Assembly: GCF_054482595.1 (NCBI RefSeq)
Contig: NZ_CM137008.1
Reading direction: 5' to 3' (one strand)
DNA length: 64,000 bases
Shown: positions 40,437 to 41,272 of the stretch, piece after piece
Layout of the letters: every line of letters begins with the position of its first letter
Position numbering within the stretch: position 1 is the first letter of the stretch
Program-made: the position numbers and the translations under genes
The notes under the pieces: model-generated
Database searches by the model: none
Told to the model about the DNA's origin: nothing
The model's input: only the letters and a program-made list of their open reading frames with translations

Positions 40437-40521
40437 GACCATAACCTCAATGATTTATTTTTATACAAACTATGTTACGTGCTGTAACAGGAGCGCGAAG
40501 TGTAGGGTCTGAGGTACATCT

Positions 40522-40538
40522 TAGAAATCAGACCAGTG
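40522..40538. promoter_or_regulatory. FadR operator-like site upstream of fadL (site 2)
   Basis: Minus-strand CACTGGTCTGATTTCTA resembles the FadR consensus ANCTGGTCNGAYNTGTT. Confidence 0.5.
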
Positions 40539-40545
40539 GCGAGAG

Positions 40546-40562
40546 TATAGGTCGGACCAGCT
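40546..40562. promoter_or_regulatory. FadR operator-like site upstream of fadL (site 1)
   Basis: Minus-strand AGCTGGTCCGACCTATA matches the FadR core CTGGTCNGAC. Confidence 0.55.
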
Positions 40563-40807
40563 GGAATGTTGCAAGTATGTTTCTATCTTTTTTCAAATAT
40601 GATCTAAGAAACGCGATCCAGCTGGCAAAATTTGGAGGTGGCGCACTCATGGATTCGGGTGAATTTTGTTTTAGATCATTTTTAAGTGTGATTTCGGTCA
40701 CTTATCCGATTTTGCAGAATTAACAACTGGAGCAGCACTTTCCGGAAGCGTAAAATATCCACAACGTTTATCTGGCACCTTGGGTGCACATACAGAGGAA
40801 ATCAACG

Positions 40808-41092
40808 ATGAGTAAATGTAGTGCTGATGAAACCCCGGTTTGCTGCTGTATGGATGTTGGCACCATTATGGACAACTCCGACTGCACCGCGTCTTACAGC
40901 CGCGTGTTTGCAAACCGCGCAGAAGCAGAACAAACGCTGGCGGCGCTGACTGAGAAAGCCCGTAGCGTGGAATCCGAACCGTGCAAAATCTCCCCGACTT
41001 TCACTGAAGAGTCTGATGGTGTGCGCCTGGATATCGATTTCACTTTTGCCTGCGAAGCTGAAATGCTGATCTTCCAGCTGGGTCTGCGTTAA
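40808..41092 (+). CDS. yfcZ: UPF0381-family protein YfcZ
   Basis: ORF 40784..41092; recognised YfcZ from MSKCSADETPVCCCMDVG (40808). Confidence 0.8.
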   Translation: MSKCSADETPVCCCMDVGTIMDNSDCTASYSRVFANRAEAEQTLAALTEKARSVESEPCKISPTFTEESDGVRLDIDFTFACEAEMLIFQLGLR

Positions 41093-41229
41093 TTCCTCTC
41101 GGGTACGTACGCCCCTGTCAATTGCTGGCAGGGGCGTTTTCTTTTCTCTTCTTCTTTTCTCTCTGTGTCATAGCTCCCACTTTCCCTTTTCTCCGCTTGG
41201 CTAAATGTAAAAAAATGGTTAAGACTATG

Positions 41230-41246
41230 ATCAGGTCAGACCACTT
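41230..41246. promoter_or_regulatory. FadR operator-like site upstream of fadI
   Basis: ATCAGGTCAGACCACTT, a palindromic GGTCAGACC core, 27 bp upstream of the fadI start. Confidence 0.5.
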
Positions 41247-41272
41247 TATTTATTTTTTTACAGGGGAGTGTT

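Follow-up and report, generated by a model that had tools for sequence, protein, structure and literature searches.

Three 17-bp motifs surrounding yfcZ in a 64-kb segment of the Escherichia coli chromosome (the window, that is, the whole stretch of DNA analyzed) are almost certainly the known operators of the GntR-family regulator FadR, two of them serving fadL and one serving fadIJ. A preliminary description of this DNA had placed two sites upstream of fadL and one upstream of fadI, and the expected letters were present at exactly these coordinates (Table 1), with the fadI site ending 26 nt before the ATG. Its interpretation of the sites as a means of co-repressing fadL and fadIJ is established in the literature (PMC3460868, PMC9329746), the locus having been characterized since 1993 (fadL) and 2003 (fadIJ). 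FadR binding, its release by acyl-CoA and the in vivo effects are accordingly quoted below from published work. We obtained the sequences of the sites, their statistical rank, their position relative to the promoter elements and their deep conservation. The analysis yields exact coordinates for three FadR sites that are unannotated in RefSeq for this strain, and shows that reading a sequence by itself can recover experimentally proven operators; the comparison of ~80 enterobacterial species, in which each of the three operators keeps both its sequence and its position, is a modest addition.

Organization of the region

The interval between positions 40443 and 41272 comprises the fadL–yfcZ spacer, yfcZ itself and the yfcZ–fadI spacer, with fadL transcribed from the minus strand and yfcZ and the fadI–fadJ operon from the plus strand. 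Gene names were assigned from the list of open reading frames (ORFs) and the RefSeq annotation of E. coli strain XH990, which is 100% identical over the 1.1-kb stretch around the sites; this stretch was found in 5425 of 5426 complete E. coli genomes. In an older annotation, the start codon of fadL is the ATG at 40442. As a side observation, the FadL protein encoded here shares ~95% identity with FadL of other species-cluster representatives of E. coli and ~77% with that of E. albertii, whereas the neighboring YfcZ and FadI are 97–99% identical; the lower identity of FadL is in keeping with more rapid evolution of an outer-membrane protein that is exposed.

Table 1. Coordinates of genes, operators and predicted signals in the 64-kb window
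Feature	Position	Strand	Evidence and remarks
fadL	39096–40436	-	ORF list and RefSeq annotation of XH990
fadL FadR site 2, CACTGGTCTGATTTCTA	40522–40538	-	core of EMSA probe fadL-FadR-site2; weight matrix; conservation
fadL FadR site 1, AGCTGGTCCGACCTATA	40546–40562	-	core of EMSA probe fadL-FadR-site1; weight matrix; conservation
CRP box, TGTGATTTCGGTCACT	40687–40702	.	position matches EMSA-validated site (PMC3460868); conservation 0.96
Predicted yfcZ -10, TAAAAT	40751–40756	+	fully conserved block in 72-sequence alignment
yfcZ (94 aa; DUF406, YfcZ/YiiS family)	40808–41092	+	RefSeq annotation; Pfam PF04175, E = 1e-36
yfcZ intrinsic terminator	41109–41147	+	terminator scan; stem 41109–41137, arms conserved
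Predicted fadIJ core promoter: TTGGCT (-35-like, 41197–41202) and GTTAAGACT (-10 region, 41218–41226)	41197–41226	+	alignment of ~70 species
fadIJ FadR operator, ATCAGGTCAGACCACTT	41230–41246	.	weight matrix; conservation; review PMC9329746
fadI (thiolase)	41273–42583	+	ORFs and RefSeq annotation
fadJ (alpha subunit, second beta-oxidation complex)	42583–44727	+	ORFs and RefSeq annotation
fadI–fadJ operon	41273–44727	+	ORFs and RefSeq annotation
fabB FadR site, GGCTGATCGGACTTGTT	60203–60219		identical to published fabB EMSA probe; 67 bp upstream of fabB ATG at 60286

The two fadL operators

Read on the plus strand, the two fadL sites are TAGAAATCAGACCAGTG (site 2) and TATAGGTCGGACCAGCT (site 1), the reverse complements of the sequences given in Table 1. 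Site 2 consists of a single good half-site (CTGGTC), its other half being degenerate (GATTTC). Both sites are the very operators studied by Feng & Cronan 2012 (PMC3460868): the probe fadL-FadR-site1, GGCGAGAGTATAGGTCGGACCAGCTGGAATGTTGC, matches the window exactly at 40538–40572, and the probe fadL-FadR-site2, GAGGTACATCTTAGAAATCAGACCAGTGGCGAGAG, matches exactly at 40512–40546, so that each 17-mer is identical inclusive of 9 flanking bases on either side. The separation of 7–8 bp (~8 bp in the publication) and the placement relative to the fadL start site are the same as well; nothing differs, although the DNA comes from another E. coli strain. In that work, FadR bound both probes with similar affinity, at ~50 nM, and was released from both by oleoyl-CoA, a long-chain acyl-CoA, and repression of fadL by FadR was found to be modest; fadR mutants are described in the literature as derepressed ~2-fold for fadL. 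Both sites had been covered by the DNase I footprints of DiRusso et al. 1993, as cited.

A generic sigma-70 scan returned one promoter-like site, no more than in shuffled sequences, and the promoter elements were instead located with the aid of the published start site and of sequence conservation. Transcription of fadL starts 95 bp upstream of the start codon (PMC3460868), and counting from the older start codon puts +1 at 40537. On the minus strand, the promoter reads TTGCAA (40574–40569), a 19-nt spacer and the -10 hexamer TATACT (40549–40544). Site 1 fills the spacer between -35 and -10, with its 3' end overlapping the first four bases of TATACT, and site 2 spans approximately -1 to +16 relative to the published +1. 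In the absence of long-chain acyl-CoA, a FadR dimer would occupy each 17-bp site, and with site 1 between -35 and -10 and site 2 at the start site, RNA polymerase would be hindered; the expected outcome is the modest (~2-fold) repression of the literature.

The fadIJ operator

The reverse complement of the fadI site is AAGTGGTCTGACCTGAT, and both of its half-sites are good. The preliminary description had called it near-palindromic, which is correct for the GGTC-N-GACC core, but the outer arms match at just 5 of 8 positions. The site abuts or overlaps a predicted promoter: in an alignment of ~70 species, TTGGCT is invariant and GTTAAGACT is conserved, with the operator immediately downstream, suggesting that the operator sits on the -10/+1 region of a start site whose exact position is predicted here.

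In the abstract of Campbell, Morgan-Kiss & Cronan 2003, fadI still goes by its old name, yfcY, and is reportedly preceded by a "strong FadR binding site". We infer that the 17-mer at 41230–41246 is this operator because it is the sole consensus-grade site in the yfcZ–fadI spacer, and the label "strong" fits its top weight-matrix rank. A 2022 review (PMC9329746) places the operator of fadIJ (yfcYX) directly ahead of fadI, as one site overlapping the predicted start site, states that the induction of fadIJ by long-chain fatty acids depends on FadR, citing Campbell et al. 2003, and counts both fadL and fadIJ as direct targets of FadR repression, exerted through sites overlapping their start sites. 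The review statement, together with the 2003 abstract, points to direct binding of FadR to this 17-mer in vitro. At fadIJ, the single strong, nearly symmetric site on the -10/+1 region would be expected to keep the operon repressed, and imported fatty acids, once converted to long-chain acyl-CoA, would take FadR off the DNA and derepress both fadL and fadIJ.

The three sites can be compared with the fadBA operator, ATCTGGTACGACCAGAT, which is the one in the FadR–DNA crystal structures 1H9T and 1HW2 (as cited in PMC9329746). The 17-bp layout of two half-sites, TGGT(C/A)-N-GACCA, and the promoter occlusion are the same. The symmetry differs: the fadBA operator is a perfect palindrome, whereas the fadI site is symmetric just in GGTC-N-GACC and fadL site 2 has one half-site. 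As regards the function of the operon, the preliminary description had assigned fadIJ to anaerobic beta-oxidation; this follows a proposal of 2003, but the label is now disputed (PMC9329746), the same review stating that ArcA represses the operon in anaerobiosis and that its regulation is like that of fadBA.

A conserved CRP-like box, TGTGTcatagcTCCCA, was observed at 41164–41179, upstream of fadI. If +1 of fadI is near 41233, inside the FadR operator, the center of the box would lie at -61.5, a class I position. CRP control of fadIJ is mentioned in the review (PMC9329746), and this box may be the site in question.

Weight-matrix scores and motif counts

Short degenerate motifs are prone to spurious matches, and the three sites could in principle be functionless matches that arose by chance. 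A weight matrix was therefore built from six FadR sites outside the region (those of fadBA, fabA, fabB and fadE and two of fadD), taken from published probe tables, and used to scan the ~128,000 positions on both strands of the window, with dinucleotide shuffles as background. The fadI site scored 17.3 bits (rank 2; 0.055 matches expected per 64 kb in shuffles) and is the best match from outside the training set, followed by fadL site 1 at 14.3 bits (rank 3; 0.64 expected); the former is clearly significant and the latter moderately so. Against the consensus aaCTGGTCnGACC(T/A)Gtt, with 16 specified bases, these sites have 2 and 3 mismatches, respectively. Site 2 of fadL reached 9.9 bits (rank 13) where shuffles yield 8.6 such matches per 64 kb, and is therefore not above background by score alone. 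Thus, the assignment of the sites to FadR is borne out by the matrix at the fadI site and fadL site 1, but site 2 scores at chance level and is supported instead by its position, conservation and published binding.

The top rank went to the fabB site, the window's fourth FadR site, at which FadR acts as an activator; this rank is circular because the sequence is part of the training set. Every match of at least 13 bits is found directly in front of a gene of the known FadR regulon, namely fabB, fadI or fadL, and the remaining matches of at least 10 bits either fall in coding DNA (evgS, evgA, fadI, yfcV, dsdA) or are without the GGT core. Pairs of matches of at least 9.9 bits each, 10–40 bp apart, appeared in 8 of 200 shuffles. 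Simple counts are also in part compatible with chance: the 64 kb contain three copies of CTGGTCNGA, two of which lie in this region, versus 1.14 expected in the window, and a count of three was reached in 7 of 100 shuffles. GGTCNGACC occurs just twice in the window, in fadL site 1 and the fadI site, versus 0.41 expected.

Conservation across Enterobacteriaceae

Scanning one genome per species yielded 80 Enterobacteriaceae loci, from genera including Escherichia, Salmonella, Citrobacter, Klebsiella, Enterobacter, Kluyvera, Kosakonia and Raoultella. The order fadL (minus strand), yfcZ and fadI (both plus strand) is kept in all 80 species wherever the contig allows this to be seen. The best matrix matches lie at fixed distances from the start codons: 84–93 nt (site 2) and 108–117 nt (site 1) from that of fadL, and 24–36 nt before that of fadI. 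In an alignment of 72 sequences, site 2, site 1 and the fadI site have mean identities to the window of 0.96, 0.90 and 0.98, respectively, whereas the two spacers average 0.80 and 0.70; the three sites are conserved islands in variable spacers. The fadI 17-mer is identical in most of ~78 species. In fadL site 1, free variation is confined to the central base ("N" in the consensus), and the two outermost bases are not fully conserved. The degenerate half of fadL site 2 is conserved too, and its fixation across ~80 enterobacterial species suggests that this weak half is under selection rather than decaying. Within E. coli, 56-mers spanning the sites occur once per genome in 5425 and 5368 of the 5426 complete genomes, in most of them with 100% identity.

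These results bear directly on a chance origin, in favor of which stand the background-level score of site 2 and the unexceptional count of CTGGTCNGA. Outside the training set, no match scores higher than those of the fadI site and fadL site 1; all three sites sit on promoter cores; all three are kept in sequence and position in ~80 species amid variable flanks; and binding has been published (PMC3460868). For fadL site 1 and the fadI site, a chance origin is ruled out by the matrix and the shuffles, and for site 2 solely by conservation and published binding. Overall, we consider it exceedingly improbable that these are fortuitous matches.

Other regulators linked to the same DNA

FadR is not necessarily the sole ligand of the fadL 17-mers, since they are in vitro targets of LldR too. 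In a genomic SELEX study of LldR, a peak was found in the yfcZ/fadL spacer and exactly these two 17-mers were named as LldR boxes, with 11/14 and 9/14 matches to the consensus (PMC10272880); in SELEX of PdhR, fadI was marked by a peak and fadL was bound at a low level (PMC7660256). The sites might, then, serve mainly such other regulators of the FadR subfamily of GntR proteins, whose boxes resemble TGGT-N-ACCA and share the TGGT...ACC core, with FadR as a secondary ligand. However, the sites are closer to the FadR consensus, CTGGTCNGACC, than to that of LldR and PdhR, AATTGGTnnnACCAATT, and the PdhR box of fadI is another sequence, located at 41277–41293 within the gene and separate from the FadR site. 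Furthermore, FadR binding, release by acyl-CoA and fadR-dependent expression have been directly shown for fadL (PMC3460868), whereas the LldR data consist of in vitro SELEX and modest expression changes. LldR and PdhR differ from FadR in their effectors (lactate and pyruvate, respectively) and in the reported sign of regulation, which is activation. A primary role of LldR or PdhR at these sites is very unlikely, and the reading as FadR operators is retained. Additional factors, namely OmpR, ArcA and the sRNA RybB, also act on fadL (reviewed in PMC9329746).

One entry of the LldR study concerns the same sequence. Table 1 of PMC10272880 gives TATAGGTCGGACCAGCT, the reverse complement of fadL FadR site 1 as written in our table, as the LldR box of the lpxP/yfdY spacer. 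No GGTCNGACC occurs in that spacer (12945–13296 in the window), and the entry is probably a slip in the published table.

The fadL–yfcZ spacer also contains a CRP box, TGTGATTTCGGTCACT, the center of which lies 157.5 bp upstream of the fadL +1. This agrees with the EMSA-validated CRP site of fadL, described as "centered 157 bp upstream" and as atypically far from the promoter (PMC3460868). The same box lies ~68.5 bp upstream of the start site predicted from the conserved yfcZ -10, and may serve yfcZ besides, or in place of, fadL. Its spacing to the fadL promoter and that to the yfcZ promoter are both invariant in 68 species, and because both are invariant the comparison does not discriminate between the two promoters.

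yfcZ between the operators

The preliminary description had noted that the FadR sites bracket yfcZ. This is accurate as geometry; functionally, yfcZ has a predicted -10 and a terminator of its own, and we found no evidence of FadR control. In the terminator, a T-run follows a stem of 12 bp, 8 of them G-C pairs; this terminator is located upstream of the fadI promoter and operator. With its own promoter and terminator, yfcZ appears to be an independent transcription unit. A FadR site overlapping or adjacent to the promoter, as expected of a member of the FadR regulon, was not seen at yfcZ, there being no matrix match of at least 5 bits between 40563 and 40807.

Control of yfcZ by the flanking operators, which are 684 bp apart, could nevertheless be envisaged through interference between the divergent promoters or through looping, which would make yfcZ an unrecognized member of the fad regulon. 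The position of yfcZ between fadL and fadI in all 80 species is compatible with such an arrangement, as is the fadL–yfcZ spacer, which is almost invariant in length, with fixed spacing among FadR site 1, the CRP box and the yfcZ -10. The yfcZ and fadL mRNAs, moreover, change in parallel in the LldR (PMC10272880) and RpoN/NtrC (PMC8743547) studies. The distances speak against it: the fadL operators are ~190–230 bp upstream of the yfcZ -10, too far for occlusion, and the fadI operator is downstream of the strong yfcZ terminator. FadR is a dimer and is not known to loop DNA or to form higher-order assemblies, which counts against looping at yfcZ. Among the 15 papers in which a full-text literature search found yfcZ, there is no report of FadR control, a search on b2343 returned nothing relevant, and yfcZ does not appear in the supplementary text of the iModulon paper that was searched. 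We therefore regard FadR control of yfcZ as unlikely. Because the spacer length is unusually rigid, some coupling is conceivable, in which yfcZ would take part in the fatty-acid response by being linked to FadR at the flanking operators, for instance via the divergent fadL region and the CRP box; the far-upstream CRP site would then serve yfcZ, a proposal that we likewise hold to be improbable.

Several other features of yfcZ and its surroundings were recorded. A sigma-54-like sequence, TGGCACCTTGGGTGC, occupies 40773–40787, 21–35 nt upstream of the yfcZ ATG; it contains the palindrome GCACC-N3-GGTGC and is fairly well conserved across Enterobacteriaceae. An RpoN/NtrC genomic-SELEX peak has been reported at K-12 coordinate 2,458,968 (PMC8743547), which corresponds to position 40788 of the window, beside TGGCACCTTGGGTGC. 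The ribosome-binding site of yfcZ would be missing from a transcript that starts at this element, in agreement with the repressor role that the same study proposes. A search for YfcZ homologues recovered just close enterobacterial relatives among the matches listed (the best 120). An Rfam search of both spacers detected no family of structured RNA or sRNA; a match to Spot 42 over the yfcZ terminator was rejected as sub-threshold (20.7 bits versus the 80 required).

Other features of the window

Downstream of fadL, on the minus strand at 37700–38731, lies an Asn/Asp-rich ORF of 343 aa that is annotated as a hypothetical protein. A Pfam search with this ORF gave no match; it contains an internal near-repeat, formed by IGIDNQEPIKLLASYKDKELARTIINDNIVEKTHD and IDIDNQEPIKSPANDENKKVGQTIINENIVENTHD. 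Farther away, the stretch 25246–35250, near a tRNA-Arg gene (35176–35250), carries strain-specific features, including a frameshifted emrK, a fragment of a DUF4942 gene, and a truncated dsdX that adjoins a sucrose-utilization cluster (LacI-family regulator, cscA, kinase and MFS transporter). This stretch looks like an insertion hotspot.
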